DNA of 64,000 nt from the NCBI GenBank assembly GCA_017964255.1, contig JAGCSI010000034.1:9992-73991 (forward strand), in the 5' to 3' direction. The notes beneath the pieces are model-generated. The model saw only the letters and a list, made by a program, of their open reading frames with translations, was not told the origin of the DNA and made no database searches. Within the stretch, counting starts at the first letter, position 1. The number at the start of each line of letters is the position of its first letter. Position numbers and translations under genes: made by a program. This stretch comes from Bacteroidales bacterium (lineage in GTDB: Bacteria > Bacteroidota > Bacteroidia > Bacteroidales > WCHB1-69). This document shows positions 2,963 to 63,272 of the stretch, in pieces.

Positions 2963-3161
2963 GTCGTTTATGCGTTAAGACGTTAAGACATGCACTTCGT
3001 ACATTCGTTAAGACGTTAAAGCGATGTGTTATTCGCATTTATTCGTCTCCTATTCGTTAAGGCGTTAAGACATGCATTGCGTGCATTCGGTTAGGCGTTA
3101 TTGCAATTATCGTCTTAACGAGCGAATGAAGTGAGCGTCTCCACGTCTCCACGTCTTCACG
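2963..3161 (-). repeat. family-A composite intergenic element, copy 1 (CGTTAAGACG...CGTCTTAACG bounded)
   Basis: cgttaagacg (2973-2982, tandemly repeated) and its exact reverse complement cgtcttaacg (3111-3120) bracket small hairpins (atgca..tgcat). An octamer tail gtctccac gtctccac gtcttcac follows. It fills the gap between the pgm stop (3167) and the acs-like start (2925). Confidence 0.8.
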
Positions 3162-3166
3162 AATTC

Positions 3167-5083: not shown

Positions 5084-5125
5084 CAAAAATTATCAACCCT
5101 TATTATTAATTTAATTCATAAAATT

Positions 5126-5664: not shown

Positions 5665-5754
5665 GAATTCAAAGTTCAGAATTCAAAATTCAATTGGTAC
5701 ATTAGCACATTAAAACAATTTGCTAATTTACTAATTAACTAATTTGCTAATTAA
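5665..5754. repeat. heptamer (GAATTCA-like) plus octamer (AATTTGCT-like) tandem tracts abutting the ftsW stop
   Basis: gaattca aagttca gaattca aaattca, then aatttgct aatttact aattaact aatttgct aattaatc. The tract ends at the stop codon at 5755-5757. Confidence 0.8.
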
Positions 5755-6833: not shown

Positions 6834-6991
6834 GTCGTTTATTCGTTTATGCGTTAAGACGTTAAGACATGCACTTTGTGCATTCGTTAAGGCGTTAGGA
6901 CGTTAAGATATGTGTTACGTACATTCATCAAGGTAATTATCGTTTTAACGAGCGAACGAAGTGAGCGTCTCCACGCCTTCACGTTTCCACG
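6834..6991 (-). repeat. family-A composite intergenic element, copy 2
   Basis: cgttaagacg (6852-6861) pairs with cgttttaacg (6941-6950). Internal hairpin atgcac ttt gtgcat; octamer tail gtctccac gccttcac gtttccac. It fills the whole gap between the murD-remnant stop (6993) and the ftsW start (6828). Confidence 0.8.
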
Positions 6992-14354: not shown

Positions 14355-14857
14355 TATCTTTTTTCAATACTTTTTCCACAATTTTTCCTTTTTAGTCAAA
14401 AAAAGATAATATTGTAATGTAAATATCTGAAAATCAGTGTGGAAAAAAATGGTAATTTTTTCGAATTTAAAGGATTAATAAGCTAAAATATTGATTTTTC
14501 AGTAGATAAAGTTATATAATTTAATAAATCATAACTTTTTAAAAATCAATACTATATAAGAAATAAATGGAGGTCTTTCCAAAATTTTCCACAATAGATT
14601 GTTGATTTTCGGAGAAATCTGGAAAAAAATGGAAACTTTTGGAGCGGGAAGGAAAGTTATCAACAAAAAAACGACCCGAAGGTCGTTATGCTTTCCACAG
14701 GGGAATGTTGATTAATTAACAAATTGGTTAATTAGCAAATAAGCAAATGATTTTAATGTGCTAATGTGCAAATTGATGATTACGATTTGCTCGAATGAGG
14801 CTCGAAAACGGCCTCAAAGAGGTCGAATCTTAGTAACCCCGCACGTAAGTGTGGGGT

Positions 14858-16174: not shown

Positions 16175-16306
16175 TAATTAGCTAATTAGCAAATTAGTTA
16201 ATTAGCAAATTAGCAAATGATTTTTGGGAGTCTCATGCTAAGCATTCGAGGGAGAGTTGTAAATGTGCTAATTGAATTTTGAATTCTATTCAATGTGCCA
16301 ATTGAA
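16175..16306. repeat. mosaic of octamer (AATTAGCA) tract, 30-bp C element and heptamer tract
   Basis: taattagc taattagc aaattagt taattagc aaattagc (16175-16219). C element gggagtctcatgctaagcattcgagggagag (16226-16256). Heptamers aaatgtg ctaattg aattttg aattcta ttcaatg tgccaat run up to the stop at 16308. Confidence 0.8.
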
Positions 16307-17314: not shown

Positions 17315-17486
17315 CGTAAAAAACACATATTTCTGATCTTAAAAAGACTCCCCTCGAACGCAGTGCGAGATTTCCCCAAATTTTCTCATTTGCTAATTTA
17401 CTAATTAACCTATTTGCTAATTCTCTTCAACATTTCCCTGTGTATAAATACTATCCTCTTTTTGAAAATAGAGGGCAATATCCTTT

Positions 17487-19552: not shown

Positions 19553-19995
19553 AAAGGACAGCTGTTATTTTTTCAATTGTTATTGTGGTCTTGCTTGTGT
19601 TGTCAGTAACAGCATGTATGACCGCCAAAAAGAAGGCCGAAATGGCACAGAACAAACCCTTGGTGGATACCTATTGGGTGTTGAAGTCGGTGAAGGGAGA
19701 GGATATACCCAAAAATATCATCACACCTTTCATCGTTTTTCATTCAGACGGGACTTATAACGGCAATTTGGGCTGCAATAAATTTTTCGGCAATTATAGA
19801 TGCGGCAAGAGCAAGATGAAGATGGAATATGAGGGGGCTACCAAGCGCTTGTGTGAGACTATGAAAGTGGAGAAGCTTTTCATGTTGCATCTCCACAGCG
19901 ATTTCAAACAATATGAAATTATCAAGGATACACTTATCCTGAAGGATAAAGAGGGCGAGGTGTTGCGCTTCTTCGCTGGCGTGAGACCGGAATAG
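19549..19995 (+). CDS. META (HslJ-like) domain lipoprotein
   Basis: 148 aa. Lipoprotein-type signal (LSVTAC) and the W-x-L pattern DTYWVLKSVKG typical of META domains. ATGA overlap with engB. Confidence 0.65.
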   Translation: MKRTAVIFSIVIVVLLVLSVTACMTAKKKAEMAQNKPLVDTYWVLKSVKGEDIPKNIITPFIVFHSDGTYNGNLGCNKFFGNYRCGKSKMKMEYEGATKRLCETMKVEKLFMLHLHSDFKQYEIIKDTLILKDKEGEVLRFFAGVRPE

Positions 19996-20000: not shown

Positions 20001-20057
20001 AGGTGCCAGTGGTCAGTGGACAGAAAAATCTGTAACCTGCAACCTGTAACCTAATCC
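20001..20057. repeat. heptamer tracts (CAGTGGT-like and CTGTAAC-like) between convergent stops
   Basis: ccagtgg tcagtgg acag, then ctgtaac ctgcaac ctgtaac ctaatcc. The tract ends at the nadB stop (20058-20060). Confidence 0.75.
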
Positions 20058-27000: not shown

Positions 27001-27306
27001 CCGGAAATCCGCCTGAGTATTATAGACGATGAATTGGATTTTCTTTTCCGAGGTGAAATTGAGCATTTTTTCAATCTCACTGATAAACTGTGGTGCCTTA
27101 TATAGCGTGTATTCAGCCAGATTTTTACCAGTGGGGTAGAAGTATACGTCGAATTGTGTGTCCCGGAAGTATTCCCAATTGAATTTCTGGTGCTGTACCC
27201 GGTTCTTTCCGAAACTCAGCTGTGAACCATTGTAAAACTGGGCATACAAAGGCACTGCCGCTATCAAAAGCAGGAATAAAACCATGATTTGCCCGAGTTT
27301 TTTCAT
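24076..27306 (-). CDS. large outer-membrane protein: N-terminal globular region + TolB/PD40-like beta-propeller repeats + C-terminal Omp85/surface-antigen-like beta-barrel
   Basis: 1076 aa with a signal peptide (AAVPLYAQ). PD40-like repeats (PDGESYAY, HPSGSVLAF, DPDGKFLLFSG..SDIFIF). Alternating-hydrophobic C-terminal third ending FNFSIGLDF, an aromatic terminal residue typical of OMPs. Confidence 0.6.
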   Translation of the reverse strand: MKKLGQIMVLFLLLIAAVPLYAQFYNGSQLSFGKNRVQHQKFNWEYFRDTQFDVYFYPTGKNLAEYTLYKAPQFISEIEKMLNFTSEKKIQFIVYNTQADFRESNFACDDEDFYNQGGITNIYGTKVYLYFDGSHAHFDKMLKAGIMNIYAHLLVEGSTTASNMKSSYTGSMPSWYYNGLSSYIGRNWDSDIDAHVKDGILTQRYADFDELSPVDATYAGHSFWKFIVDEYGEKAIPNILHVTRSSGSYERGFYLVTGLEYRQLLANWFRYYYILYAKDRERTMPDGNGILKRPHKLRDYNQFCFSPDGESYAYATNEAGQVKIWLKTPEKKKPVVIYRKYKKTEDNPDLSYPSLCWHPSGSVLAFTMEDKGRCYYYPFDTEKNKVGKRILVDVEKITDFSFDPDGKFLLFSGFKNGQSDIFIFSLLAKSYQNITNDFYDDCFPVFLDKKQIVFSSNRPVDSIKIKDPFYQAKPVDGYNLFLYRYVQKDEKLLQITHSNHVNNIQAQAVSPREILFLSDENGIYNQQLTRLDSSISKIDTIIHYGYFARLSHLSDNYYSIFEQSYNPASVQSGSIILYDKVKRIYITPLASPLHQQELSASSIKAQILKEQQIKDSLANVKPEKKKESATKHGFYQFRKSDLVKKPVIVEDSLSNTGSKKGIQEDVLTKGFEYVHPISKNYYTQYTVNKLVTQADYGFLNTTYQQFTSSTSPIYLNTGINALFMVGIHDLFENHRITGGFRLGLDMQSNEFMISYENLSRRVDHQIVFYRQSINSYNSYYMYKQRANSLFYIIKLPFDKFNSLRLTLTGRLETNILGSTNDAALKAANEWHVWAGAKIEYIFDSSKELYTNLWKGSKIKLFAEYQQRVEKETKNLFVIGFDIRKSVKVYKNMTWATRLAASTNFGQSRLVYYMGGVDNWIGAKFNSDIWVDVSKDYAYQTLATNMHGFEQNIRNGTSFIVLNTELRIPFIQLIVGHKVRFNFFNSMQLLLFGDFGTAWTGLTPYSEDNCLYTRYVINGPITAKITRQVEPFVGGFGLGLRVSVFGYFLRFDYAWGVEDYKIYNPKGMFNFSIGLDF

Positions 27307-27324
27307 CGCGTCAGTTTAAGCGTG

Positions 27325-27352
27325 CAAAGCTACAAAAATTTTTGTATTTTTG
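27325..27352. promoter_or_regulatory. back-to-back divergent -7 boxes forming a 28-bp near-palindrome
   Basis: caaagcta (minus-strand TAgcTTTG, 19 nt from the ATG at 27306) and tatttttg (plus strand, 21 nt from the ATG at 27373) are joined by caaaaatttttg. Confidence 0.55.
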
Positions 27353-27372
27353 CCCTTCATTTTGTTATTATC

Positions 27373-29088
27373 ATGGATATTCTGACAGTAAATGATTTTT
27401 CTCTGGAATTGAAGCGTGATGAGGAATGGAAACAGATTCTGCATCACGTGACTTTTTCGTTGGGAAAAGGGGAGACTGTCGGTATCGTGGGCGAGTCGGG
27501 TTCTGGCAAGTCGGTGACCGCTTTGTCGGTAATGCAGTTGCTGAATCGGAAAATAGCCAAATTCACGTCGGGAAGCATAGTCTTTCATGACAAAGACAGT
27601 GAAATTAGTATTTTGGACGCATCGGAAACGCAGATGCGGAGTATTCGGGGTGCTCGTATCGCCATGATTTTCCAGGAGCCTATGACCTCCCTCAATCCGG
27701 TCATCAAGTGTGGCGATCAGGTGACGGAGGCGATTTTGCTGCATAACGACATCAGCGAAAAAGAGGCCCGCGAGCAGGTGATTACACTTTTCAAAGAAGT
27801 GATGTTACCTCGTCCGGAAAAAATCTTTGATTCTTATCCTCATGAGTTGTCCGGTGGCCAGAAACAGCGTGTGATGATCGCCATGGCCATGAGCTGTCAT
27901 CCCGATATCCTGATTGCGGATGAGCCTACTACCGCACTGGATGTGACGGTGCAGAAGAATATTCTGGAACTGATACGCAGTCTGCAGCAGAAGCATGGCA
28001 TGAGCGTGATTTTTATCACCCACGATTTGGGTGTGGTGGCCGAAATCGCCGAAAAAGTGGTGGTGCTGTACAAGGGCCAGATTGTGGAGGCGGGACCGAT
28101 ACAAGAGATTTTCAGACATCCTCAACATCCTTATACACAGGGCTTGTTGGCATGTCGTCCGCCTTTGGATGTGCGTTTGAAAAAATTATCCACAGTGGAT
28201 GATTACATGCGCAGTGCGGAAGAGCATAAGGCGGTGCCAAAAGAGATTGTCTCTCCGGAGGAAAGACAAGTTTTCCATCAGCAGTTATATGCTGAGAAAC
28301 CGTTGATATGCATTGAGCATTTGTTCAAGACCTATCCCATTCGAAAACGGAAGTTGTTTGAGAAGCAGGAGTATGTCCATGCAGTGCAAGATATTAGTTT
28401 GGAAGTGTTTGAAGGAGAAACCCTGGGTTTGGTAGGCGAGTCGGGTTGCGGCAAAACCACTTTGGGCAGGTCCATGATCCGCTTGATTGAACCCACTTCA
28501 GGAATCGTAACTTATAAAGGGGAGAATTTGCTGAATTTGTCGGGACGGGAGATGATGAAACACCGCAAAGACCTGCAAATTATTTTGCAAGATCCTTATT
28601 CGTCTTTAAATCAGCGAATTACTATAGGTTCGGCCATCATGGAGCCAATGCAGGTGCATCATTTGTATGCCAATGACAAGGAACGGAAAAAACGGGCGAT
28701 AGAGTTGCTGGAGCGTGTTAGTTTGGACGAGTCGCATTTCTACCGCTATCCGCACGAGTTTTCCGGTGGTCAGCGGCAGCGTATCAGTATTGCCCGTGCC
28801 TTGGCGGTGAACCCTCGCTTCATCATCTGCGATGAGTCAGTTTCCGCGCTGGATGTGTCGGTACAGGCCCAGGTGCTGAATCTGCTTAATGAGTTGAAAC
28901 AGGAATACCATCTGACCTATATCTTCATTTCTCACGACTTGTCGGTGGTGAAGTTCATGTCCGATAGGATGGCGGTCATGCAGAATGGTAGAATAGTGGA
29001 ATTAAATGATGCGGACGAGGTGTATGCCCATCCGCAGACAGATTATACTAAAAAATTAATCGGGGCTATTCCCAAAGGTATTAATTAA
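27373..29088 (+). CDS. ABC transporter ATP-binding protein with duplicated ATPase domains (Dpp/Opp/YejF type)
   Basis: 571 aa from MDILTVNDF. Two Walker A motifs ([16 protein letters not shown]) and two signature motifs ([16 protein letters not shown]). Confidence 0.9.
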
Positions 29089-29112
29089 GAACTAAGAATT
29101 AAGAGTTAAGAA
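29085..29112. repeat. (TTAAGAA)4 heptamer tract overlapping the ABC stop codon
   Basis: ttaagaa ctaagaa ttaagag ttaagaa. The TAA stop at 29086-29088 lies in unit 1. Confidence 0.8.
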
Positions 29113-29135
29113 CCAAGTATTTAAAATAACAAGAT

Positions 29136-30066: not shown

Positions 30067-30231
30067 TTATTTGCAAGAACGACTGTCGTTGGAGTAATTG
30101 CCGCAGTCTTCGTTGTAAGCTATTTCAATTTCCTGGTCTAAATTAGAACTGGAAATGGAACAGGTGCATGATTTGCTGCAGGCGCAACACATCATCGCCG
30201 CTACACAAACAAAAAACAATATCTTTTTCAT
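30067..30231 (-). CDS. 54-aa Cys-rich small secreted/lipoprotein-like peptide (not in ORF track)
   Basis: Hand translation gives MKKILFFVCVAAMMCCACSKSCTCSISSSNLDQEIEIAYNEDCGNYSNDSRSCK*. The N-terminus is signal-like and runs into a Cys cluster; 8 Cys in total. ATG at 30231-30229, TAA at 30069-30067. Confidence 0.4.
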   Translation of the reverse strand: MKKILFFVCVAAMMCCACSKSCTCSISSSNLDQEIEIAYNEDCGNYSNDSRSCK

Positions 30232-30256
30232 AATCTATAGTAGTAATTAGTTTTGT

Positions 30257-30313
30257 ATTCTGAACTTTGAATTTTGAATTCTCTAAACTCTAATCCCTGT
30301 CCCCTGTAACCTG
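30257..30313. repeat. eight drifting heptamer units ending 1 nt from the stop of the first T9SS paralog
   Basis: attctga actttga attttga attctct aaactct aatccct gtcccct gtaacct, followed by the stop (tca at 30314-30316). Confidence 0.85.
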
Positions 30314-33157
30314 TCATCTCTCCCTGATCACCTGTAGCGTCCCATGATAATTCACCGTCTTCAATTTCCCCTTGTAATAAAAGGTAAAAAAGTAGGTTCC
30401 GTCAGTGACTTTGGACGCGTCGAAAACTTGTTCGCCAATGATAATCCCGTTGCCTCTTTCTCCCGTCATATCTTTGAAAGTGTCGTAGTTTATCGCATGA
30501 TAAACTTGCTTGCCCCAGCGATCATAGATGAATAGCTCGTTATTTCTGTATTTGTCTGGGTCAAAAACGTTCATGGTGGTGTTGAGATTGCCGATAGCGA
30601 ACACATCGTTCACTCCATCGCCATTGGGTGTGATGACGTTCGGGAAGACAAGGTCCGCTTCGAGTGTTACCGTGTGAGCGATGCTGCTGCTACAACCGTC
30701 AGAGGAGGATAGGGATAGCGTGACAACATAATCTCCCCAACTGCTATAATTATGCTCAATGCTGTAGCCCGAAGACTCACTGGAACCATCGCCAAAATCC
30801 CAAAGAATACTCATATTGTCCTCGAAAGACAGGGTGTCGCCCATAACATGAAATGTAATGACACCACCGCTTTCCGCCCAAAGGGAAATTTCTGGCAATG
30901 CTTCAAATTCGGCGACTGGCTGATAGTTCACATTGATTAAGTCAGACTTTAATAGCGAGTCTTGGCAGCCTTCGGGGCTTGTTATCGTGAGTTGTATGCT
31001 GTATATGCCACTTTGCTCGAAAGTGTAGTTGGGGTTTTGTTGCGATGAGGTGAAAACTATCTGTCCATATTCATCCCAACAGGTCCAATAATATTGTAAA
31101 TTTTCCCCTGTGACTACGCTCCTGTCAGTAAAGGTTACAGACAAAGGGGAACATCCACTGGTGTCGCTGACGGAAAAATCTGCCGTCGGTTTGGGTGCCA
31201 CCTGAATCAACACCGTGTCAGCGCCACTGCATACCAAGCCGTCTTCGGAGGTGTTGAATACATTCAGGGAATATTCGCCTGCAGAGGTAAGATAAATATC
31301 TGAGGTGTGCTCGCCAGTGCTCCATAAAAAGGTGGAGTTGTTATCCTGCCAGTTGGAAGTCAACAAGTATAGGTCACCGAAGCAGATAAAACGGTCATCT
31401 CCCAGGTCGGGCTGGGGACTTTGGGTAATGTCGATGTGCATAACGGTGTCATAAAGACAGCCATACTCATCGATTACATTCACCGTGTATGGAATATTGC
31501 CGCTTTGATTGGGCACAATATAGGTGCCGTTAGCTCCCGGACCTGTGATGAAGATGGTGTCCACTGCTACGGCATACGACCAGTTTTGGGGAAGTAGGGA
31601 GGGATCCAAAGCCATTTCCCATTCATGTAGATAACCATTGTCATTAGTCCATACATCCTCGATTTCGATGTACCAGCTGCCGTTCAAGGGACAACCTACC
31701 ATACCTGCGAAACTTTGAAGAGGATGATACACTTGGGTCATATTGGCCACGTCAGTGGAGTCGATTTTGTAGGAAGTAGAGCCATCATCCCAATAGGGGT
31801 TGGGCGTGGAGTGCACATTGCCAGGCTCATAACAATAGCTGTTTGGTGTGCTGGCATATTGATAACCTAATGTCGTGTTGTTCGACCATACATAATTCCA
31901 AGCAATTCCCATAGGATTTTGTGAGGCGTTGCAACTTACCACCTCCTGCAAGCGGTTTGCTACTCCCAAATTGGTCCGGAAGTAGTGGGTGACACCGCCC
32001 CAACCGTCATACTGGTAGTCGGGAACAATCTTGCAGCGACTTCCATTAGGACATACCAGTGAGATACGAATGTCTTCGATGGCAGAGTGCTCTATTTTCA
32101 AGCGCACATACAGAATGTCGTTGGCGCTGGTGATGGTTGCATTGGGCGAAAAAGCCGTGAAATTGACGTATGAACGGTAGTAATAGCCGTAAGGCGGACA
32201 ACTTATGCCGTCGGGGAGAAAAACCGTATCCACGACAGCCAATGAGGTGATTTGTTCACTTCCTACCGGGGTCAGTTGCAAGGAGGATAAATTGTCATAG
32301 CCTACCGACAGGTGCAATTCGTCGCCTGTGCATGCGGGCGCTTGGGCGGCAATCCCTTTGATGGGATTCTTGGAGGTGCGCACACGGAAGGTAATGGGCA
32401 CTAACGATGGGCATTGGCTGACATCAATGGCGCTGATGGCCACGTCATAGCCGCGTCCTGGTGTGAAGTAGTAGTCAATGGTATTCCCACCTGTAATGTC
32501 AAACTCTTCCAAGTCAAAATCCCACTTGAACGAGGTGGTGGCGTCAGACTGATGATAGCTGAAGTCATTGTCGGGATAGTCACAGTGAACCACAAAATGA
32601 ACGGTGTCATAAGGACAGACATCCACATAATAGTAGCTGTCTTCAGGATTCAGATGGGGAATATGGGTGGATTGTAATGAATCCAAGTAAATGTTCACGC
32701 GTTGGCATGGGGCAATGCAGCTGGTATGCAGTTCAAAGCCTTCGCTTACATTGGCGGAATCGGTCTTGAATCTGACGGTGATGGCACCAGTGGCATTTTG
32801 GATGGTGGCTGCATAACGGTAGGTGACAGTAGGATTGTAATTTCCATTGTTGATTTTGTGCAGCAATATTCCGTTGGTATCGGTTCCGTCGTAGAAATAA
32901 AGGGTGTCGTTTTCGTCGATATTCAGGCTTTGGACCTCTACCACGACACAGCCGTTGTTGGGGTCGTTGGAGGTGATGGTCAGTGTCTGGTCGAGATTTG
33001 AAGAGTAGTCTCCACTGGCCCCGCCATTGTCATAGATCAGCAAGTCACAGCCGGCAATGGCCGAACTGGCTCCAAGGTTTATGGTGCCTTGGGCGATAAG
33101 CATGGGTAAGCAGGAGATGAATAGTACAAACAAAAAGAAAGACTTTCTCATAAGCAT
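30314..33157 (-). CDS. T9SS type-B C-terminal sorting domain surface protein, paralog 1 (CUB-like + P-domain-like + PKD repeats + CTD)
   Basis: 947 aa with a signal peptide. N-terminal CUB-like block (CDLLIYDNGG...DTLYFYDG); P-domain-like block (LYVRLKIEHSAIEDIRISLVCPNGS). PKD-like WDFGDGS. C-terminus FPNVITPNGDGVNDVF...IYDRWGKQVY...GTYFFTFYYKG matches the gliding-motility C-terminal (type B) domain. Confidence 0.8.
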   Translation of the reverse strand: MLMRKSFFLFVLFISCLPMLIAQGTINLGASSAIAGCDLLIYDNGGASGDYSSNLDQTLTITSNDPNNGCVVVEVQSLNIDENDTLYFYDGTDTNGILLHKINNGNYNPTVTYRYAATIQNATGAITVRFKTDSANVSEGFELHTSCIAPCQRVNIYLDSLQSTHIPHLNPEDSYYYVDVCPYDTVHFVVHCDYPDNDFSYHQSDATTSFKWDFDLEEFDITGGNTIDYYFTPGRGYDVAISAIDVSQCPSLVPITFRVRTSKNPIKGIAAQAPACTGDELHLSVGYDNLSSLQLTPVGSEQITSLAVVDTVFLPDGISCPPYGYYYRSYVNFTAFSPNATITSANDILYVRLKIEHSAIEDIRISLVCPNGSRCKIVPDYQYDGWGGVTHYFRTNLGVANRLQEVVSCNASQNPMGIAWNYVWSNNTTLGYQYASTPNSYCYEPGNVHSTPNPYWDDGSTSYKIDSTDVANMTQVYHPLQSFAGMVGCPLNGSWYIEIEDVWTNDNGYLHEWEMALDPSLLPQNWSYAVAVDTIFITGPGANGTYIVPNQSGNIPYTVNVIDEYGCLYDTVMHIDITQSPQPDLGDDRFICFGDLYLLTSNWQDNNSTFLWSTGEHTSDIYLTSAGEYSLNVFNTSEDGLVCSGADTVLIQVAPKPTADFSVSDTSGCSPLSVTFTDRSVVTGENLQYYWTCWDEYGQIVFTSSQQNPNYTFEQSGIYSIQLTITSPEGCQDSLLKSDLINVNYQPVAEFEALPEISLWAESGGVITFHVMGDTLSFEDNMSILWDFGDGSSESSGYSIEHNYSSWGDYVVTLSLSSSDGCSSSIAHTVTLEADLVFPNVITPNGDGVNDVFAIGNLNTTMNVFDPDKYRNNELFIYDRWGKQVYHAINYDTFKDMTGERGNGIIIGEQVFDASKVTDGTYFFTFYYKGKLKTVNYHGTLQVIRER

Positions 33158-33216
33158 GATTTTTTGTTTTTGATATCCAATTTGCCTCCGTAAGAATCTC
33201 TATTAAAATCAGTCCA

Positions 33217-33224
33217 CAAAGTTA
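33217..33224 (-). promoter_or_regulatory. Bacteroidota -7 box (TAacTTTG on minus strand) for paralog 1
   Basis: caaagtta lies 60 nt upstream of the ATG at 33157. Confidence 0.5.
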
Positions 33225-33267
33225 CACAAAAATTTTAAACATATTTCTACTTGCAATAATTTATTGT

Positions 33268-33302
33268 AAAAAAAAAGAGTTAAGAAGAATACCTCTTAAC
33301 TC
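33268..33302 (-). terminator. intrinsic terminator after paralog 2
   Basis: On the minus strand: 9-bp stem gagttaaga/tcttaactc with an 8-nt loop, followed by a T9 run (the A-run at 33268-33276 on the plus strand). Confidence 0.7.
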
Positions 33303-33337
33303 TTAATTGTTAATTGTAAACTATTAACTATCAATTG
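33294..33337. repeat. six heptamer units (TCTTAAC-like) abutting the stop of paralog 2
   Basis: tcttaac tcttaat tgttaat tgtaaac tattaac tatcaat, then tg and the stop tta (33338-33340). Unit 1 doubles as the terminator stem arm. Confidence 0.8.
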
Positions 33338-36199
33338 TTAACGGTCTCTGATAATCTGCAGGGTGCCGTGATAGTTGACGGTTTTTAATTTTCCTTTGTA
33401 GTAAAACGTGAAATAATAGGTACCATCGTTCACCTTGGAAGCGTCGAAGACCTGTTCTCCCACTATAATACCATTACCTCTCTCACCGGTCATATCCTTG
33501 AAAGTGTCATAGTTGAGTGCATGATATACTTGTTTGCCCCAGCGGTCGTAAATGGTCAGCTCGTTGTTTCTGTATCTGTCAGGGTCATAGCTGTTCATGG
33601 AGGTGTTGAGGTTGCCGATGGCAAATACGTCGTTCACACCATCCCCATTGGGAGTGATGACATTCGGGAAAATGAGGTCTGCTTCCAGAGTAACTGTATG
33701 GGTGATACTGCTGTTACAGCCTTCGGGGGTGAACATGAACAAGGTTACATCGTAATCGCCCCAGCTGGAAAAGCTGTGTTCGAGGGCATAGCTGGAGGAG
33801 TCGATGCTGCCATCGTCGAAGTCCCAATAAAATCCCATGTCATCTCCGAATGCCAGCGTGTCGCCTTGTACCTGGAAGAAGACGGAGCCATTAGTTTCAG
33901 ACCAAAGCGCTACTTCGGGCAGAGCATCGAATTCAGCCAAGGGTTGGTAATTGATGGTCAGGTAATTGACCTTGGTGATAGAATCCGTACAGCCTTCATC
34001 AGTGGTAACCACTAATTTGACGGTATAGTGGCCTTCATTCTCGAAGCGAAGGTCCGGATTGGCCTTGTCAGAGGTGCTGACAATATTGCCGTTTTCATCA
34101 AAGATAATCCACCGGAAACTCATTCCCATGGTATCATTGGTTACGCTCCTGTTGATAAAGTGGATGTCAAGTGGTGCGCAACCTGCGGTATCCGATGCGG
34201 TAAATTCGGGAACAGGTTTAGGTGATACATATACATTGACGGTATCAGAACCCGTGCAGGTCAAACCATCGTCATTGGTAACGGCCACACGTACTGAATA
34301 ATCACCTGCGGAAGTTAAGAAGATGGTGGGAGTGTGTTCACCGGTATTCCAATAAACGGTACTTTGGGGATTGTCATAATGTGAATCCAATTCATAGAGT
34401 TCTCCGTGGCAGATGGCAATGTCGGGACCCAAGTCGGGATGAGGTCTCTCTACTACTTCAATATGAAGCAGTGTGTCATACACACAACCAAATTCGTCCA
34501 TAATGTGTGCGGTATATTCTACCTGACCACTTTGGTCGGGAATAATGTATGCTCCTTGAGCACCAGGACCGGTAACCCACATGGTGTCAGGGTGAACAGT
34601 ATAATCCCAGTCTTGTGGCAGCAAGGAAGGATCCAGAGCCATTTCCCATTCGGTCAGCCAGCCGTTATCAGCGCCCCAACCGTCAATTACTTTGATAGAC
34701 CAGGTTCCGTTCATCGGACAGCCAATAAGTTGTGAGAAGGGCTGGTCAGGATGATATACTTGGGTCATGTTCACTGTGTTGGTGGAATCTACTCTGCCGT
34801 TAGTTACATTGACAGTTTCATATACATAACCTTGGCCGTTGGCATATTGGTATCCCAGCGCAGTGTTGTTGGACCAGCAGTAGTTCCAAGTCTGACCCAT
34901 TTGGTTTTGGCTGTCGTTGGGGTTGCAACCATTGGAATAGTCGTAGGCTACACCGAAATAGGCACCTGAAGAGACTCCAGAAGTTACTTGCCATCCCCAT
35001 GGGGTCGGAATCTGGGAAGCACAAGTGGTGGCACCGCTGGTTCCGTATTTGTTCATAATTTTGACTGTTTGTCCATTAGGACAGCTCAAGGCAATGTAGA
35101 TATCACCGATAAATGAGTGCTCCAACTGGATACGGACATACAAAATGTCATCGGCACTTTGGATGGTGGCAGAGGGAGCAAAAGCTGTAAAGGTTACAGA
35201 TGAAGTGTATGCACATCCATTACCACAGTCCACACCGTCGGGGAGGAAGATGGTGTCCGTTACCTTCAAAGTGGTCAGCTGTTCACTGAACACAGAGTCC
35301 ACCTGGATGACAGAAAGGTTTGAATAGGTGGAGGAGACTGTGATTTGGTCGCCAGTACACATAGGAGGTAATTGCGATACTTTTCTGATGGGGTTTTGGG
35401 AAGTTCTGATACGGAAGATTTCAGGCATATAGTTGATACAGCCGGCACTATCCACATTGGAGATGGCGATGTCATAACCGCGACCTGTGGTGAAATAGTA
35501 ATCCAAGGTGTTCATACCCACACCTTCTTGTGTTTCAATTCCCAAATCCCAAGTGAATGTTGTGTTTGCATCGTCCTGATGATAGCTGAAGTCGTTGTCC
35601 GGATAGACACCGTGCACTACCATGTGCAAAGTGTCCTTTTCGCACAAATCCACATAGTAGAAGCCGTCGTCAGCCAAATGGGGATAGTGGGATGACAATA
35701 CTGAATCGATTTCCAAACTTACGCGCTGGCAGGGAGCCACACAGTCGGTGTTGATGACGTATCCTGTACCAACACTATCTGATGCATCAGAAACGAATTT
35801 TAAGGTCAATGCGCCTGTGGGATTGGTCACTGTGGCGGTGAAAATGATATTGTTGGCTGTGACACCGTACATTACATCGTTGTTGACGGCACCGATCAAC
35901 AGAGAATCGGCATCAGTGACACCATCATAGATGTACAGTGTGTCAGTGGGATGGATGTCAAAACCCAACATGACAATGCTGATCTGAACACACGCTGCAT
36001 TCGGGTTGCTGGAGTGAATGGTCAGAAGGTCGTTGCGGTTGGGACCATAATTTCCTTGGAGACCACCGTGATCATAAATGACGAAATTACAGCCTGTTAC
36101 ATCTGTGGTACTACCGCCCATGGTGACTACAGTCTGCGCTGAAACAGTACCTATAATCCCGCAAATAATAAAAGCGAGGAGAGTTAAAATTCTTTTCAT
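33338..36199 (-). CDS. T9SS type-B C-terminal sorting domain surface protein, paralog 2
   Basis: 953 aa with the same architecture as paralog 1. The C-terminal ~115 aa are nearly identical in all three paralogs, and the protein is collinear with paralog 3 over its whole length. Confidence 0.8.
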   Translation of the reverse strand: MKRILTLLAFIICGIIGTVSAQTVVTMGGSTTDVTGCNFVIYDHGGLQGNYGPNRNDLLTIHSSNPNAACVQISIVMLGFDIHPTDTLYIYDGVTDADSLLIGAVNNDVMYGVTANNIIFTATVTNPTGALTLKFVSDASDSVGTGYVINTDCVAPCQRVSLEIDSVLSSHYPHLADDGFYYVDLCEKDTLHMVVHGVYPDNDFSYHQDDANTTFTWDLGIETQEGVGMNTLDYYFTTGRGYDIAISNVDSAGCINYMPEIFRIRTSQNPIRKVSQLPPMCTGDQITVSSTYSNLSVIQVDSVFSEQLTTLKVTDTIFLPDGVDCGNGCAYTSSVTFTAFAPSATIQSADDILYVRIQLEHSFIGDIYIALSCPNGQTVKIMNKYGTSGATTCASQIPTPWGWQVTSGVSSGAYFGVAYDYSNGCNPNDSQNQMGQTWNYCWSNNTALGYQYANGQGYVYETVNVTNGRVDSTNTVNMTQVYHPDQPFSQLIGCPMNGTWSIKVIDGWGADNGWLTEWEMALDPSLLPQDWDYTVHPDTMWVTGPGAQGAYIIPDQSGQVEYTAHIMDEFGCVYDTLLHIEVVERPHPDLGPDIAICHGELYELDSHYDNPQSTVYWNTGEHTPTIFLTSAGDYSVRVAVTNDDGLTCTGSDTVNVYVSPKPVPEFTASDTAGCAPLDIHFINRSVTNDTMGMSFRWIIFDENGNIVSTSDKANPDLRFENEGHYTVKLVVTTDEGCTDSITKVNYLTINYQPLAEFDALPEVALWSETNGSVFFQVQGDTLAFGDDMGFYWDFDDGSIDSSSYALEHSFSSWGDYDVTLFMFTPEGCNSSITHTVTLEADLIFPNVITPNGDGVNDVFAIGNLNTSMNSYDPDRYRNNELTIYDRWGKQVYHALNYDTFKDMTGERGNGIIVGEQVFDASKVNDGTYYFTFYYKGKLKTVNYHGTLQIIRDR

Positions 36200-36235
36200 T
36201 GTTGTATGTTTTTATTTTTGTTGATTTTCTATGGA

Positions 36236-36688
36236 TTACAAGCCGTATTCTGATAAAACAGCGCGTTTCTGTTCCTCAAACCATTGCTTGGAGTTGACAA
36301 TGATATAGGCGCCAGTATTGCCCATGGGATAGACCACTGTCATAAAGGCATGTTGCTCCAAGTCAAAGTCATAGCGATTGATGGCTCCGCTGCTGATAAT
36401 ATCCTGGTAATTGCAGCTTTTGCCAGCTTTGACATGGTTCTTCAAGTCGTCTTTCATGATGAAAGTGCCTTCTGGTTCCGACATTTTCAAAGCCACATAG
36501 CAGAAATAATTCAGATTGACATGCTCAATCAATAATTGTTTCGGATTATTGGCTTTCAAATCGTTAACTTTGGCAGCTCCTAATATCTCTGTGAGGCGAG
36601 GATCAACCTTAATTTCTTTCTTGCTTTGCTGTGAATAGGCTCCAAATAGAAGGAAATAAGCCATCGCAAATAAAATCAGTTTTTTCAT
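36236..36688 (-). CDS. 150-aa secreted hypothetical protein, likely co-transcribed with paralog 2
   Basis: Signal peptide MKKLILFAMAYFLLFGAYSQQ. Its stop is 36 nt upstream of the paralog 2 start, with no promoter box between them. No recognisable family. Confidence 0.6.
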   Translation of the reverse strand: MKKLILFAMAYFLLFGAYSQQSKKEIKVDPRLTEILGAAKVNDLKANNPKQLLIEHVNLNYFCYVALKMSEPEGTFIMKDDLKNHVKAGKSCNYQDIISSGAINRYDFDLEQHAFMTVVYPMGNTGAYIIVNSKQWFEEQKRAVLSEYGL

Positions 36689-36809
36689 AACTATCTAATT
36701 TTTAATATGTTATCATTTTTACATTTCCCTTTTTGCTGTTTTTCTCTAACTACATGACGCTTTAAACCTTCAAAACGTTACAACAAAATGAAATTTTTTT
36801 TCTAATCGG

Positions 36810-36817
36810 CAAAGATA
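36810..36817 (-). promoter_or_regulatory. Bacteroidota -7 box (TAtcTTTG on minus strand) for the 150-aa gene/paralog 2 unit
   Basis: caaagata lies about 120 nt upstream of the ATG at 36688, implying a leader of roughly 110 nt that contains the conserved block at 36752-36796. Confidence 0.45.
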
Positions 36818-36885
36818 CAAAATATTTAATATAAATATACTTTAGATGAAAAAATAGATGCCTTTATATGGATATTTTTCTGTTT

Positions 36886-39744
36886 TTATCTTTCTTTGAT
36901 AATCTGCAGGGTGCCGTGATAGTTGACAGTTTTTAATTTTCCTTTGTAGAGGAAGGTGAAGAAATAAGTGCCGTCGGTCACTTTGGAAGCGTCGAATACT
37001 TGTTCACCCACAATGATGCCATCACCTCGCTCACCGGTCATATCCTTGAAGGTGTCATAGTTGAGGGCATGGTAAACTTGTTTGCCCCAGCGGTCGTAAA
37101 TGGTCAGTTCGTTGTTTCTGTATCTGTCTGGATCATAGTCATTCATGGAAGTATTGAGGTTGCCGATGGCAAATACGTCGTTCACACCATCTCCATTGGG
37201 AGTGATGACATTCGGGAAAATGAGATCTGCCTCCAAAGTAACTGTATGGGTGATACTGCTCTTACAACCTTCAGGAGTGAACATGGAGAGGGTCACATCA
37301 TAGTCGCCCCAACTGGGGAAAATGTGTTCAAGGGCATAGCTGGAGGAGTCGATGCTGCCATCACCAAAGTCCCAATAGAAACCCATGCCGTCGCCGAATT
37401 CCAGAGTGTCGCCCTGTACTTGGAAAAAGATGGTGCCATTGGTTTCAGACCAGAGCGCCACTTCAGGAAGAGCGTCGAATTCAGCCATAGGTTGGTAATT
37501 GATAGTCAGATAATTGTATTTGGTGATGGAATCTGTGCATCCTTCATCGGTAAGGACCACTAATTTGACGGTATAATGTCCCTCGTGGTCAAATTGCAGG
37601 TCGGGGGATGCCTTGTCGGAGGTAAAGGCCACATTGCCGTTTTCGTCATAGACAATCCAATGGTATGACATGCCCATGGTGTCGTTGGCGAAGCTGGCAT
37701 TGTTGAAATGTACGGTCAATGGCGCGCAACCAGAGGTGTCGGACGCAGAGAATTCAGGCGTCGGTTTCGGGGAAACATAGACATTGACAGTGTCGGAACC
37801 TGTGCAAACCAACCCGTCTTCGTTGGTCACAGACACACGGACTGAGTAGTCACCCGCGGAAGTCAGAAAGATGGAAGGACTGTGCTCGCCGGTGCTCCAC
37901 ACGAGTGAGGTATAAGGCTCGTCATAGCCACAATCTAATTCATAAAGGTCACCATGGCAGATGGCGATGTCGGGTCCGAGGTCAGGATGAGGCCTCTCCA
38001 CCACGTCCAAAACAAAGGTGCTATCGTATTCACAGCCTAAATCGTCAATAACATGTACCGTATATTCAAAGTTACCACCCTCGGAAGGGATGATGGTGGA
38101 ATTTTCCGCGCCAGGGCCGGTCACGTACACGGAGTCGACAAAAACGGTGTAGGACCAATCCTGGGGCACCAAAGAGGGGTCTAAAGCCATTTCCCATTCG
38201 GTAATCCATCCGTTGTCCGCTCCCCATCCGTCAATGACGGTGATTGCCCATTGTCCGTTCATGGGGCATCCGATCAATGAACTGAAGGACTCGTCAGGAT
38301 GATAAACATTGGTCATATTGAGCGTATTGGTGGAGTCAACACTGCCATTGTGGACATTGACAGTTTCGTAAACATATCCATAGCCATTGGCATACTGGTA
38401 TCCGTTGCTGGTGTTGTTCGACCAACAATAATTCCAGGGCTGACCCATTTGGTTCTGGCTGTCGAAGGGATTGCAACCGTTGGAATAGTCGTAGGCAATG
38501 CCAAAATTTGCGCCGGAAGACACTCCTGTGCTTAATTGCCATCCCCAAGGAACGGGAATATAGGCGGAGCATTGGGAGGAGCCGCTTGAGCCGTATTTGT
38601 TCATGATTTTGGCCCTTTGTCCGTTCGGACAGGTGAGCGCGATATAGACATCACCGATATAGGAGTGCTCTAATTTTATCCGGACATACAGAATGTCGTC
38701 GGCGCTCTGTATGGTGGCGTTGGGGGCGAATGCGGTGAAAGTCACGGGAGAGTTGTATTCGCATCCGTTACCGCAATCCACTCCGTCGGGAATGAAGACG
38801 GTATCGTTGACAGCCAGTGTTGTCTCCTGTACGCTGTGAACCGAGTCAATTTGCAATATGGAAAGATTGGAGTATCCGGAGGTTATCGTTATTTCATCAC
38901 CGGAACAGATAGCGGGTAGCGGCTGTATGTGCTTGATGGGGTTCATGGAGGTCCTGATTCGGAAGATGGTAGGCATCATGTTCTTGCAGCCGGCACTATC
39001 CTCATTGCTGATCGAAATGTCATATCCTCGTCCAGCTTCAAACAGATAGTCCAGTACAGTCATCCCTTCTCCTTCCATGTAGTCAACGCCCAGGTCCCAT
39101 TTGAATGTGACATTGGTGTCGGCTTGGTGGTAAGTGTAGTCATTGTCGGGATAAACCCCGTTTACGACCAGATGAAGGGTGTCATTCCCGCAAAGATCTA
39201 TGTAATAAAAGCCGTCTGTATCCAGTTGCGGATAATGAGAGGATAAAAAGGGATTAATTTCCAAACCGACACGTTGGCAAGCACGAACGCAACTTGTTTC
39301 AACGAGATATCCGCCGGATTGGAGGGTGTCGTCACTTTTGAACCTCAAGGTTATTGCTCCGCTCGGATTGTGGACGGTAGCCGAGTAAACGAGTTCGTTT
39401 GCGGAAACGTTATTTACAATTTGGCTGTTGATGGCCGCTAATAACAGAGAATCTGCCACCATGTCTCCGTCATACACAAACAAGGTGTCATTGTGACAAA
39501 TTTCCAGATATACCATGTTGATTTTCACTTGCACATTGGGATTCGTGGGGTCGTCCGAATGAATGGTCAAGATGTCATTACGGTGGGGACCGTAATTTCC
39601 TTGAAGACCGCCGTGGTCTAAAATGACAAAATCACATCCTGTGACACTTGTTGTGCTACCGCCCATCGTAACGAAGGTCTGTGCGGAAATGGTCCCCATA
39701 ATCCCGCAAATGATAAAGGCTAAAAGAATAATATTGTTTTTCAT
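36886..39744 (-). CDS. T9SS type-B C-terminal sorting domain surface protein, paralog 3
   Basis: 952 aa from the ATG at 39744. MKNNIILLAFIICGIMGTISAQT parallels the paralog 2 N-terminus. The ORF-track start at 39774 is a TTG that adds 10 aa. Confidence 0.8.
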   Translation of the reverse strand: MKNNIILLAFIICGIMGTISAQTFVTMGGSTTSVTGCDFVILDHGGLQGNYGPHRNDILTIHSDDPTNPNVQVKINMVYLEICHNDTLFVYDGDMVADSLLLAAINSQIVNNVSANELVYSATVHNPSGAITLRFKSDDTLQSGGYLVETSCVRACQRVGLEINPFLSSHYPQLDTDGFYYIDLCGNDTLHLVVNGVYPDNDYTYHQADTNVTFKWDLGVDYMEGEGMTVLDYLFEAGRGYDISISNEDSAGCKNMMPTIFRIRTSMNPIKHIQPLPAICSGDEITITSGYSNLSILQIDSVHSVQETTLAVNDTVFIPDGVDCGNGCEYNSPVTFTAFAPNATIQSADDILYVRIKLEHSYIGDVYIALTCPNGQRAKIMNKYGSSGSSQCSAYIPVPWGWQLSTGVSSGANFGIAYDYSNGCNPFDSQNQMGQPWNYCWSNNTSNGYQYANGYGYVYETVNVHNGSVDSTNTLNMTNVYHPDESFSSLIGCPMNGQWAITVIDGWGADNGWITEWEMALDPSLVPQDWSYTVFVDSVYVTGPGAENSTIIPSEGGNFEYTVHVIDDLGCEYDSTFVLDVVERPHPDLGPDIAICHGDLYELDCGYDEPYTSLVWSTGEHSPSIFLTSAGDYSVRVSVTNEDGLVCTGSDTVNVYVSPKPTPEFSASDTSGCAPLTVHFNNASFANDTMGMSYHWIVYDENGNVAFTSDKASPDLQFDHEGHYTVKLVVLTDEGCTDSITKYNYLTINYQPMAEFDALPEVALWSETNGTIFFQVQGDTLEFGDGMGFYWDFGDGSIDSSSYALEHIFPSWGDYDVTLSMFTPEGCKSSITHTVTLEADLIFPNVITPNGDGVNDVFAIGNLNTSMNDYDPDRYRNNELTIYDRWGKQVYHALNYDTFKDMTGERGDGIIVGEQVFDASKVTDGTYFFTFLYKGKLKTVNYHGTLQIIKER

Positions 39745-39849
39745 TGTGCTATGGTTTTTAGTGTTTTCTTTCAATCACATGACGCTAAAAACTCGCAAAA
39801 CGTTACAATGAAATCAAGTTTTTGGCAAGCCGGAGGCTTACATAAATTT

Positions 39850-40897: not shown

Positions 40898-40939
40898 AAT
40901 GTTTGTTGTTTTTGTTTAATGGTTAATGTTTATTTTTTT

Positions 40940-41027
40940 GAGCTATGAGCTGTGAGCTGTGGGGTATGAGGTTAGAGTTTAGGGTTTGGGTTTAATGGGG
41001 AGTCTCATGCTTCGCATTCGAGGGGAG
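40940..41027. repeat. eight GAGCTGT-like heptamers followed by 30-bp C element
   Basis: gagctat gagctgt gagctgt ggggtat gaggtta gagttta gggtttg ggtttaa, then ggggagtctcatgcttcgcattcgaggggag (40997-41027). Confidence 0.85.
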
Positions 41028-41153
41028 TTTAAATTCCCCTTCTTCTAGATTCGACGAATGAGCGAGTGCAGATTCATAGTTTACTTTGAGTATGCCGAGC
41101 GAAGAGGAGAAGAAGACGAAGTCTTCAACGGGTGGCCGAAGGCCGGGGTAGTC

Positions 41154-41181
41154 TAATTTTGAATTTTGAATTTTGAATTAA
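41154..41181. repeat. (GAATTTT)n heptamer tract next to the stop of the FemAB-like gene
   Basis: taatttt gaatttt gaatttt gaattaa, 6 nt before the stop at 41188-41190. Confidence 0.8.
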
Positions 41182-41187
41182 TATTGC

Positions 41188-44343: not shown

Positions 44344-44380
44344 AAAAAAAAGTGGAGATGCAATGGCGTCTCCACTTTTT
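44344..44380. terminator. bidirectional-type intrinsic terminator after the acyl-CoA ligase gene
   Basis: 10-bp stem gtggagatgc/gcgtctccac (one G-U pair) with loop aatg, flanked by A8 and T5. The arm reuses the gcgtctccac word found in family-A elements. Confidence 0.7.
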
Positions 44381-44420
44381 CATCGCTCACGGCTCATCGC
44401 TCATGGCTTTTGTCCGTGGC
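44381..44420. repeat. CATCGCT-like heptamer tract abutting the stop of the acyl-CoA ligase gene
   Basis: catcgct cacggct catcgct catggct tttgtcc gtggc, then the stop tta (44421-44423). Confidence 0.8.
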
Positions 44421-46190: not shown

Positions 46191-46290
46191 GTTTATGATT
46201 TAAGTTGATAAATTTCTTCTGAGTTGAGGCTAATAAAAAATGCAAAAGAATGAAAAAAAATGACAGACTTGTATTTTATGGTGTGTTTGA

Positions 46291-46408: not shown

Positions 46409-46432
46409 CATCCCTTTAAAATATATTGTATA

Positions 46433-54426: not shown

Positions 54427-54466
54427 TAGGGGATAATATTCTTGAATTTTGAATTCTGAATTATAT

Positions 54467-59345: not shown

Positions 59346-59348
59346 CAA

Positions 59349-59388
59349 ATTAATTAGCAAATTAGCAAATTAGCCAATGAGCAAATTA
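59349..59388. repeat. AATTAGCA-type octamer tract abutting the TolC stop
   Basis: taattagc aaattagc aaattagc caatgagc aaattatt, then the stop tta (59389-59391). Confidence 0.8.
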
Positions 59389-61843: not shown

Positions 61844-61947
61844 ATCGTTTATACGGTTATACGTTAAGGCGTTAAGACGACATTATTCATTTTTTCTGTT
61901 TTTCCGAACGAACGTAGTGAGTGTCTCCACGCTTCCACGTCTTAACG
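61844..61947 (-). repeat. family-A composite intergenic element, copy 3 (short form)
   Basis: cgttaagacg (61870-61879) and its exact reverse complement cgtcttaacg (61938-61947). Contains gtgtctccacgcttccacg. It lies between the permease stop (61957) and the adaptor start (61818). Confidence 0.8.
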
Positions 61948-63218: not shown

Positions 63219-63272
63219 GCTATGGGCTGTGAGCTATGGGGTGTGAGCTCATCGCTCATCGCCCACAGCTTC
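63219..63272. repeat. GCTRTGR/GCTCATC heptamer tract filling the gap between the two permease genes
   Basis: gctatgg gctgtga gctatgg ggtgtga gctcatc gctcatc gcccaca gcttctc, running into the stop at 63273-63275. The two halves are imperfect reverse complements of each other. Confidence 0.8.

Follow-up and report, generated by a model that had tools for sequence, protein, structure and literature searches.

Heptanucleotide tandem repeats have been an unexplained trait of some bacterial genomes for decades. In cyanobacteria they go by the name of short tandemly repeated repetitive (STRR) sequences, a term that reportedly goes back to Mazel et al. in 1990. Three tandemly repetitive heptanucleotides are cited for Calothrix PCC 7601 (in PMC4692102), and heptanucleotide repeats are the commonest class of long simple sequence repeats (SSRs, with 5-11-nt units) in most genomes, for which polymerase slippage has been proposed (Mrazek 2007, as summarized in PMC4679880). 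The Xanthomonas/Nostoc heptamers GGGAATC / GGGGA(T/C)T lie preferentially in the spacers of aligned open reading frames (ORFs), with few between divergent ORFs or in coding sequence (CDS); they are found ≤50 bp from stop codons or overlapping them, frequently form inverted pairs that could fold into stem-loops, and are very variable between close relatives (Rehm 2015, PMC4692102). In five Bacteroidetes, TAACTGA and other heptamer direct repeats occupy the same spacers, and related strains are without them (MacGregor 2015, PMC4679880). Here we describe arrays of 7- and 8-nt units in a 64-kb stretch of an uncultured rumen Bacteroidales genome (contig JAGCSI010000034.1, positions 9,992 to 73,991, referred to as the window herein), which holds a dense and degenerate version of this trait, with ∼20 tracts over its 64 kb. 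The G+C content of the window is 46%, and CHU_C/PKD genes of the type IX secretion system (T9SS) type are present.

When we compared the window tracts with these systems, they resembled the cyanobacterial STRRs in their tandem 7-nt units, few word families per genome, and many intergenic sites. Unlike STRRs, the tracts are found in Bacteroidales, with arrays that are shorter and, at 3-8 drifting units, more degenerate, and with a parallel 8-nt class. They share with the Xanthomonas/Nostoc heptamers the location between aligned ORFs, the proximity to stop codons, the inverted pairs, and the variability between relatives; however, those heptamers are G-rich, quadruplex-forming, and dominated by one word, whereas the window tracts lack G-tracts, are rich in A+T, and draw on many words. 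Like long SSRs, which have 5-11-nt units, they consist of head-to-tail copies of a short unit, here 7 or 8 nt, beyond chance, and like both long SSRs and the TAACTGA repeats they are intergenic, of the heptamer class, and sporadic across phyla. The TAACTGA repeats lie mostly just 5′ of start codons in one orientation, whereas our tracts have no orientation bias and favor the stop-codon side. The repetitive extragenic palindromic (REP) sequences and bacterial interspersed mosaic elements (BIMEs) of enterobacteria are extragenic modules scattered in both orientations, many of them 3′ of genes, that form mosaics with hairpins and have a ∼35-nt palindrome as their unit. The window resembles them in its dispersed elements of either orientation and its hairpin mosaics, and it also holds a 28-nt palindrome in four copies, but the tracts themselves are direct 7-8-nt arrays and palindromes occur just in accompanying modules such as GTAGAGACGTTTCATGAAACGTCTCTAC. 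On balance, we lean toward the reading that the tracts are a lineage-specific family of 7-/8-nt short tandem repeats of the same kind as the cyanobacterial STRRs and the long SSRs of other bacteria, and not a translational device. They are a Bacteroidales example of a heptamer-repeat class that has been described in other phyla and only sketchily in Bacteroidetes. A preliminary description of the window, made from its letters alone, stated that it knew of no described equivalent in Bacteroidota, which given the heptamer direct repeats in five Bacteroidetes was only partly right (PMC4679880).

That description had listed 16 tracts of period 7 or 8. For each we compared the match fraction at the assigned lag with those at lags 4-12 and with 2000 dinucleotide shuffles. 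All 16 proved periodic, with match fractions of 0.44-0.94 that topped every other lag from 4 to 12, and P≤0.002 was obtained for 15; tract 16261-16306 was weak (lag match 0.44, P = 0.046). Most of the listed tracts were recovered independently by Tandem Repeats Finder (TRF). The description had also proposed an autocorrelation at lags 7 and 8 against shuffled controls, and on the intergenic DNA of the whole window (4878 nt) both lags peaked (z = 6.7 and 8.3, respectively), while the remaining lags from 2 to 24 stayed at |z|≤3.6. A separate simple detector returned 8 period-7 and 7 period-8 tracts, all but one intergenic, and 0, 0, 0, and 1 tracts at periods 5, 6, 9, and 10. When the same procedure was applied to 50 kb of E. 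coli K-12, we observed z = −0.2 at lag 7, z = 0.6 at lag 8, and zero tracts. An assembly artifact was ruled out since independently assembled contigs from several ENA and Logan samples are 99.99-100% identical to the window over the tract regions.

We extended the search to 1.39 Mb from 80 other Bacteroidales genomes, where periods 5 to 12 gave 2, 11, 39, 25, 25, 6, 8, and 19 tracts, respectively; 7 and 8 are the common periods other than multiples of three. The distribution across the 80 genomes is patchy, with many loci tract-free and some arrays far longer than those in the window. Cyanobacterial plasmid loci that we fetched carry heptamer arrays as well (GTAGGGA at L172, CTGTCAC at L174, and AAAGCTA at L175; comparison loci are given as L numbers).

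To describe where the tracts lie relative to genes, we measured their distance to the nearest stop codon. A stop codon is found 0-6 nt from the tract end in 12 of the 16 listed tracts, compared with 2.6 expected from uniform placement of each tract within its own spacer, a count that uses the tract boundaries of the preliminary description; with the detector's own boundaries, 7 of 15 tracts lie ≤8 nt from a stop codon. Tracts 5665-5695, 16175-16219, 40940-40996, and 54441-54462 lie away from stops. The claim that tracts abut stop codons was borne out by the 12 of 16. The 42 nt before start codons are equally periodic (z = 4.0 at lag 7 and 4.5 at lag 8, compared with 5.7 and 3.9 in the 42 nt after stop codons). 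Some arrays take up a spacer completely, from the stop of one gene to the start of the next.

Densities were also compared across loci, using the other Bacteroidales loci, the window, and four syntenic relatives. In line with the noncoding location of STRRs and long SSRs, we counted 0.005 tracts per kb in CDS, a depletion of ∼100-fold, and 0.22-0.52 per kb in spacers: 0.52 in co-directional, 0.37 in convergent, and 0.22 in divergent spacers, the last being promoter-only and having arrays about two-fold more rarely. Across loci, the relative position of tracts inside co-directional spacers is roughly uniform. Tract edges nevertheless fall ≤10 nt from a stop codon in 16 cases against 7.2 expected (P about 0.001), with no comparable excess at start codons across the same loci (9 against 7.2 expected).

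The preliminary description had speculated that the arrays could serve as a frame-independent translation stop, offering stops in all three frames, within three units, right after the gene, and had proposed a count of stop triplets as a check. Over the 779 nt of tracts, the strand read by the upstream gene has 60 stop triplets and the opposite strand 64, compared with ∼51 in shuffles, which is no sense excess. On the sense strand, all three frames are stopped over the full tract length in 8 of 17 tracts, and within about three units in just 2 of 17. The TGA said to recur every 7 nt in gaattttgaatttt belongs to the non-transcribed strand of gene 41188-42120, whose sense reading, TTCAAAA, is stop-free. 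In the tract at 30232-30313, referred to as the focal tract herein, the first 23 nt are stop-free, and overall there are 4 sense and 10 antisense stops; neither of these two tracts offers stops where they would be needed. A few tracts do fit the idea, namely 29089-29135 with TAA every 7 nt and 44381-44420 with TGA every 7 nt, but arrays occur in either orientation, also before start codons and in divergent spacers. These counts largely refute a role as frame-independent stop signals, of which the tracts give no sign; we rejected the idea on the stop-triplet counts and give it almost no credence.

The preliminary description had noted that the units fall into word families recurring in either orientation, and this was confirmed. 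Exact 9-mers common to tracts at different loci make up 35 pairs, compared with 5.5 in shuffles (maximum 15), and the sharing groups the tracts into three connected families that span unlinked spacers in both orientations. Such recurrence of unit families at many loci of one genome is also a trait of STRRs. Upon comparison with other Bacteroidales loci, the window's words were found in its close relatives only. The AATTAGCA octad element has five dispersed copies in the window, two of them absent from the earlier list, which keep variant units in identical order and are sometimes joined to a AATGTGCTAATGT module and GAATTTT heptads. In a second type of element, found at three sites, GTCTCCAC octads (3136, 6966, and 61919) form a stem with CGTTAAGA octads from the opposite end of the spacer. 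Among the origins suggested earlier, slippage products of a REP-like dispersed family fit best, given the words shared across loci, the five alike octad copies, the use of either orientation, and the rapid turnover between relatives described below.

For turnover, orthology through the methylmalonyl-CoA mutase, whose closest genome-collection matches are from uncultured rumen Bacteroidales, led to loci without synteny to the window (L007-L014). Syntenic contigs were instead ordered by the identity of their FemAB-like protein (96, 94, 90, 87, 81, and 80%). In the resulting seven relatives (80-100% protein identity), the spacer from the FemAB-like gene to upp measures 290, 237, 189, 139, 187, 128, and 53 nt and is heptadic in all. 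The entire spacer, stop to start, reads in heptads in three relatives (L087, L088, and L089); in L180 and the window it is broken by inserted non-heptad modules. These spacers are mosaics of GAGCTRT, GAAYTAA, AAACTGA, CTCAYAG, CCCTAAA, AACAATT, and TTCAAAA that vary in number and order, and conservation is restricted to the final 20-25 nt before the ATG, in five of seven. Similarly, the orthologs of the focal spacer in L089 and L090 are heptadic but in different words, entirely so in L089. A promoter-bearing spacer, on the other hand, is still alignable in L089, where the FemAB-like protein is 81% identical. Small nonperiodic modules come and go within arrays, and the ∼120-nt insert at 41031-41150 looks, from its distribution, like a small dispersed or mobile element. 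Copy number and sequence thus vary between related strains as they do in STRRs (53-290 nt in the seven relatives), and the series shows the speed at which heptad spacers are rebuilt.

The arrays turn over fast on the scale of species divergence, yet without the hypermutability of contingency loci, since contigs 99.99% identical to the window have no indels in them. Phase-variable or contingency SSRs were considered and rejected: alignments of 20.9, 16.5, and 6.6 kb to independent assemblies contain 0 gaps, and the tracts sit 3′ of genes. Evolution in steps of one unit was ruled out as spacer lengths do not change in steps of 7, and MAFFT gave ambiguous alignments of the arrays.

A functional reading would make the arrays RNA or DNA elements, either periodic platforms for a single-strand-binding protein or inverted-pair hairpins that process or stabilize transcripts, similar to REP/BIME or RNase III sites. 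Cold-shock and S1-type oligonucleotide/oligosaccharide-binding (OB) folds bind about 7 nt. CspB is cited as binding heptamer repeats with one protein per unit (in PMC4679880). Orthologous sites change in sequence but hold their period, and the tracts, besides being near stop codons, lie between apparently co-transcribed gene pairs without an intervening terminator or promoter; fold z-scores of hairpins go down to −6, and one heptad-built stem is followed by a T-run. However, in 50 tracts neither AT skew, GC skew, nor purine fraction showed a significant strand bias with respect to transcription, although there was a C>G trend at p = 0.06. For the long hairpins, the antisense fold is as good as the sense fold or better. 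Length, words, and even presence vary among close relatives (53-290 nt), tracts are missing from many related genomes, and no Rfam family matches them, a tRNA being the sole Rfam match in the window at the gathering threshold. The RNA-protein platform that the preliminary description had offered as an alternative is left unsupported by the 50 unbiased tracts, and Rho-loading (Rho utilization, rut) sites were dropped along with it given the lack of significant strand bias and the hairpins that are no better on the sense strand. Overall, we judge a functional role of this kind improbable. Stems and T-runs are both missing from most tracts, and direct arrays such as 29089-29112, 40940-40996, and 41154-41181 are unstructured; the effect of the arrays on the cell is probably incidental, with direct arrays giving unstructured intercistronic RNA and inverted arrays giving hairpins.

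Outside the window, similar arrays accompany small ORFs. In 11 of the 80 Bacteroidales loci, a small ORF lies in the spacer between mutA and mutB, which encode the two subunits of methylmalonyl-CoA mutase. Two unrelated families are involved, GxxExxY (PF13366, TIGR04256; a PD-(D/E)XK nuclease) and the four-helix-bundle "23S rRNA intervening-sequence protein" (PF05635, TIGR02436), and neither was found elsewhere in these 80 loci. At least nine of the 11 ORFs are enclosed by inverted 7-8-nt arrays that would form a 20-35 bp stem, for instance ACACAGAG ACACGGAG ACACAGAG ... CTCTGTGT CTCCGTGT CTCTGTGT, and at L038:9935-10000 a hairpin lies between mutA and mutB without an ORF. A metagenome scan yielded 91 GxxExxY ORFs with usable flanks, 42 of which are flanked by a period-8/9 tract; tracts of this period number 2.5 per kb in the flanks compared with 0.23 per kb in the background. 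In the typical layout, which recurs across many environments and over a range of G+C contents, (CRCRGAG+1-2 nt)n lies upstream and the reverse complement downstream, and ORF-less hairpins with the same arms adjoin some of these ORFs (L160, L108). For 13 four-helix-bundle ORFs, eight of them on cyanobacterial and Riemerella plasmids, the flanks gave z = 16.6 at lag 7, and by eye heptad arrays flank 12 of the 13, mostly inverted. On a Nostoc plasmid, GTAGGGA x8 and TCCCTAC x5 surround the ORF, which lies between the ribonucleotide reductase beta and alpha genes; in two genera the ORF lies between cas6 and cas4, and at L175 it is within a single long direct (AAAGCTA)n array. Scanning viral contigs for ORFs of the intervening-sequence protein gave one locus. 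We found no Rfam match in ten cassette loci, and our literature search found no paper linking GxxExxY or four-helix-bundle ORFs to short tandem repeats. The association of both families with tandem arrays may be new, and the two families give a testable handle on the origin of such repeats.

Intervening sequences (IVSs) of 23S rRNA carry an "S23p"/IVS-protein ORF (Pfam PF05635) in a long stem. The loci described here are alike in that relatives and cyanobacteria have the same ORF family in the loop of a long stem, and unlike them in that the stems lie between protein-coding genes with arms of tandem heptads, while the window has no such ORF. The arrays could therefore be arms, remnants, or landing pads of small selfish IVS-like cassettes, with the ORF-less hairpins and orphan arrays of the window as nonautonomous derivatives comparable to miniature inverted-repeat transposable elements (MITEs). 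We consider this unlikely. The enclosed ORFs and the empty hairpin between mutA and mutB, the periodic flanks of both families, and, within the window, three ORF-less octad hairpins and the small insertions inside arrays all agree with it. A MITE would have terminal inverted repeats with target-site duplication and presence/absence polymorphism; the octad hairpin has inverted arms in three copies and the ∼120-nt insert is polymorphic between strains, but no target-site duplications were identified. On the other hand, tblastn with four query proteins at E≤1e-5, run on the 64-kb window and on L087-L090 but not on L180 and L182, found no member of either ORF family. No cassette arm that we have seen uses the window's words, and the heptad tracts of the window are mostly direct and unstructured instead of inverted pairs. 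The L175 ORF in its direct array fits equally well with arrays being there first and the ORF inserted later. The cyanobacterial plasmids are heptamer-rich in any case, and the z of 16.6 is not set against their own background rate. Neither terminal duplications nor signs of transposition were found. A broader version would have 7- and 8-9-nt arrays, including cyanobacterial STRRs, as the cis elements of widespread, undescribed, tiny selfish cassettes with the ORF, for either a four-helix-bundle, Avd-like protein or a GxxExxY nuclease, in the loop of a repeat-armed hairpin inserted between the cistrons of operons much as IVSs are in rRNA, the window arrays being their offspring or landing pads; we hold this to be doubtful.

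In the reading that we favor, a lineage-specific repeat family akin to STRRs, slipped-strand mispairing or unequal exchange would add units, remove them, and duplicate them again at a given site, and re-duplication of already mutated units would give the unit-by-unit drift. Words may spread between spacers by way of small hairpin-type dispersed elements or by recombination. Selection would clear arrays from genes, promoters, and leaders, and they would survive in the unconstrained stretch right after the stop, upstream of any terminator; arrays would therefore accumulate just after stops and between cistrons. Several observations weigh against this account. The 3-4 fold stop adjacency in the window exceeds what a purely passive model obviously predicts. 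Slippage alone explains neither the recurrence of the same words at unlinked loci nor the preference for 7-8 nt over 5, 10, or 11. Zero indels were seen across six or more tract-bearing spacers in 99.99%-identical contigs, orthologous spacers do not differ in length by multiples of 7, and the tight link of arrays to two small-ORF families elsewhere hints at a more specific biology. In practice, the tracts are better not annotated as regulatory or recoding signals, and they are likely assembly break points and sites of ambiguous spacer alignment. In Elizabethkingia, contigs end inside such repeats (PMC4679880).

Table 1. Tandem-repeat tracts and associated elements of the window, followed by small-ORF loci from other genomes
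Feature	Position	Strand	Description
Focal tract	30232..30313	-	Whole 82-nt spacer from stop of CHU_C/PKD paralog (30314-33157) to ATG of 54-aa ORF (30067-30231); sense CAGGTTA CAGGGGA CAGGGAT TAGAGTT TAGAGAA TTCAAAA TTCAAAG TTCAGAA TACAAAA CTAATTA; lag-7 match 0.70, P = 0.0005; unstructured, fold z = +1.1
Heptad spacer	29086..29135	+	TAAGAAC TAAGAAT TAAGAGT TAAGAAC ...; first unit holds stop of gene 27289-29088; reaches ATG 29136; lag-7 match 0.81; minimum free energy 0.0, unstructured; among the few tracts with three-frame stops
Heptads and hairpin	33275..33337	-	Tract 33294-33337 (TTAAC/TTAAT words, lag-7 match 0.76) enters terminator-like hairpin 33275-33304, whose stem is the same heptad words (AAGAGTTAAGA...TCTTCTTAACTCTT), then T7; terminator scan flags 33304-33275, minus strand; conserved in L088
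Heptads	20001..20057		CAGTGGT..., CTGTAAC CTGCAAC CTGTAAC; fill 62-nt spacer of convergent genes 19549-19995 (+) and 20058-21653 (-); lag-7 match 0.60, P = 0.0005
Heptads	40898..40996	-	Directly before upp start; sense CCCTAAA CTCTAAC CTCATAC CCCACAG CTCACAG CTCATAG ... CATTAAA CAAAAAC; 40940-40996 has lag-7 match 0.72, P(paired) 0.20
Heptads	41154..41187	-	Just 3′ of stop of FemAB-like/GNAT gene 41188-42120; sense TTCAAAA x3, no stop triplet; 41154-41181 has lag-7 match 0.86
Heptads	44352..44420	-	Sense GCCATGA GCGATGA GCCGTGA GCGATGA (44381-44420, lag-7 match 0.64); from acyl-CoA ligase stop to A-tract/hairpin/T-tract 44352-44375, whose stem and T-run are terminator-like by eye, site not flagged by terminator scan; orthologs in L087-L089 keep hairpin GTGGAGA...TCTCCAC, heptads changed
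Heptads	54441..54462		GAATTTT family; between two hairpins in convergent spacer; 41-50 nt from stop codons; lag-7 match 0.87
Heptads	63219..63272	-	GAGCTGT/GAGCGAT family in both orientations; self-hairpin right after stop at 63273; lag-7 match 0.62; spacer fold z = −6.2
Composite element	5665..5754		GAATTCA heptads 5665-5695, AATGTGCTAATGT module, TAATTTGC/AATTAGCA octads 5717-5754 abutting stop 5755; forms inverted-repeat pair I1 with 14709-14776 (68 nt, 88% complementary)
Composite element, second copy	16175..16306		Octads 16175-16219, inserted hairpin module, heptads 16261-16306
AATTAGCA octad element, third copy	14709..14776		Not in earlier list
AATTAGCA octad element, fourth copy	17380..17422		Divergent spacer; not in earlier list
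AATTAGCA octad element, fifth copy	59349..59388		Abuts stop 59389; lag-8 match 0.78
Long imperfect hairpin	2964..3162		CGTTAAGA octads 2964-3019 pair with GTCTCCAC octads 3107-3162 (including tract 3136-3161); inverted repeat I2; spacer 2926-3166 folds at −62.1 kcal/mol sense (z = −5.5) and −65.9 antisense; P(paired) 0.73
CGTTAAGA...GTCTCCAC hairpin, second copy	6835..6991		Includes tract 6966-6991
CGTTAAGA...GTCTCCAC hairpin, third copy	61860..61947		Shorter; ends 9 nt from stop 61957
∼120-nt insertion in heptad spacer	41031..41150		Missing from six relatives; related copy in a different L089 spacer (19767-19920, opposite orientation)
mutA/mutB spacer ORFs	L055:9521-9981; L062:9486-9990; L067:9465-9990; L048:9430-9990; L054; L049; L059:9560-9990; L065; L073:2290-2740; L085		
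GxxExxY ORFs, metagenome examples (L091-L170)	L109:1248-1622; L125:885-1271; L142:1220-1609; L148:299-673		
Four-helix-bundle ORF loci	L172; L174; L175; L176; L177; L178; L179; L171		L172 Nostoc plasmid; L174 Anabaena sp. 90; L175 Pseudanabaena; L177 Riemerella; L171 IMG/VR

Immediately downstream of the focal tract, the minus-strand ORF at 30067-30231 encodes a cysteine-rich protein of 54 aa with a lipoprotein-like N terminus (MKKILFFVCVAAMMCCAC...), which falls below the ≥100-aa limit of the ORF list; small genes are called at the same position in L089 (62 aa) and L090 (58 aa). On the other side, 30314-39774 holds three tandem paralogs of ∼950 aa with PKD/CHU_C (T9SS-sorted) domains and ∼76% DNA identity, and their number varies from three in the window to two in L089 and one in L090.

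Four leaders located just 5′ of start codons (2926-2965, 36200-36235, 40898-40940, and 59292-59330) are A/C-rich, G-poor, and 7-8-periodic (AAACAAT ACAACAA AAACAAA CATAAAC), and no Shine-Dalgarno-like motif is visible in them by eye. Bacteroidetes promoter motifs (TTTG, TAnnTTTG in TAATTTGC or GAATTTTG arrays) were also considered; by eye they fit spacer 59292-59388 but not the other words or orientations. A clustered regularly interspaced short palindromic repeat (CRISPR) array was ruled out because the units are 7-8 nt and contiguous, not 24-48-nt repeats with unique spacers.

A hairpin module of ∼33-35 nt (GGGAGTCTCATGC..GCATTCGAGGGGAG) lies within or beside arrays at 16224-16256, 40998-41030, and, in reverse, 17340-17372, and is also present in L180. 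Similar small dispersed repeats, nested within heptamer arrays of cyanobacteria, were reportedly described by Elhai et al. in 2008. The perfect 28-nt palindrome GTAGAGACGTTTCATGAAACGTCTCTAC is found at 5007-5034, 5617-5644, 10065-10092, and 54467-54494, preceded in three of the four copies by a GATTCGACGAACGAGCGA-like module. Two copies flank a 160-aa ORF (5081-5563), and one falls within ORF 8833-10308, a mechanical call for which the real start may lie farther downstream. Lastly, a perfect 20-nt tandem repeat, GGCGAAATTCCCAAATGAGG x2.5, was found at 46302-46351 (TRF score 100) inside ORF 46193-46933, which runs on the strand opposite to a LytTR-domain ORF at 46406-47290.

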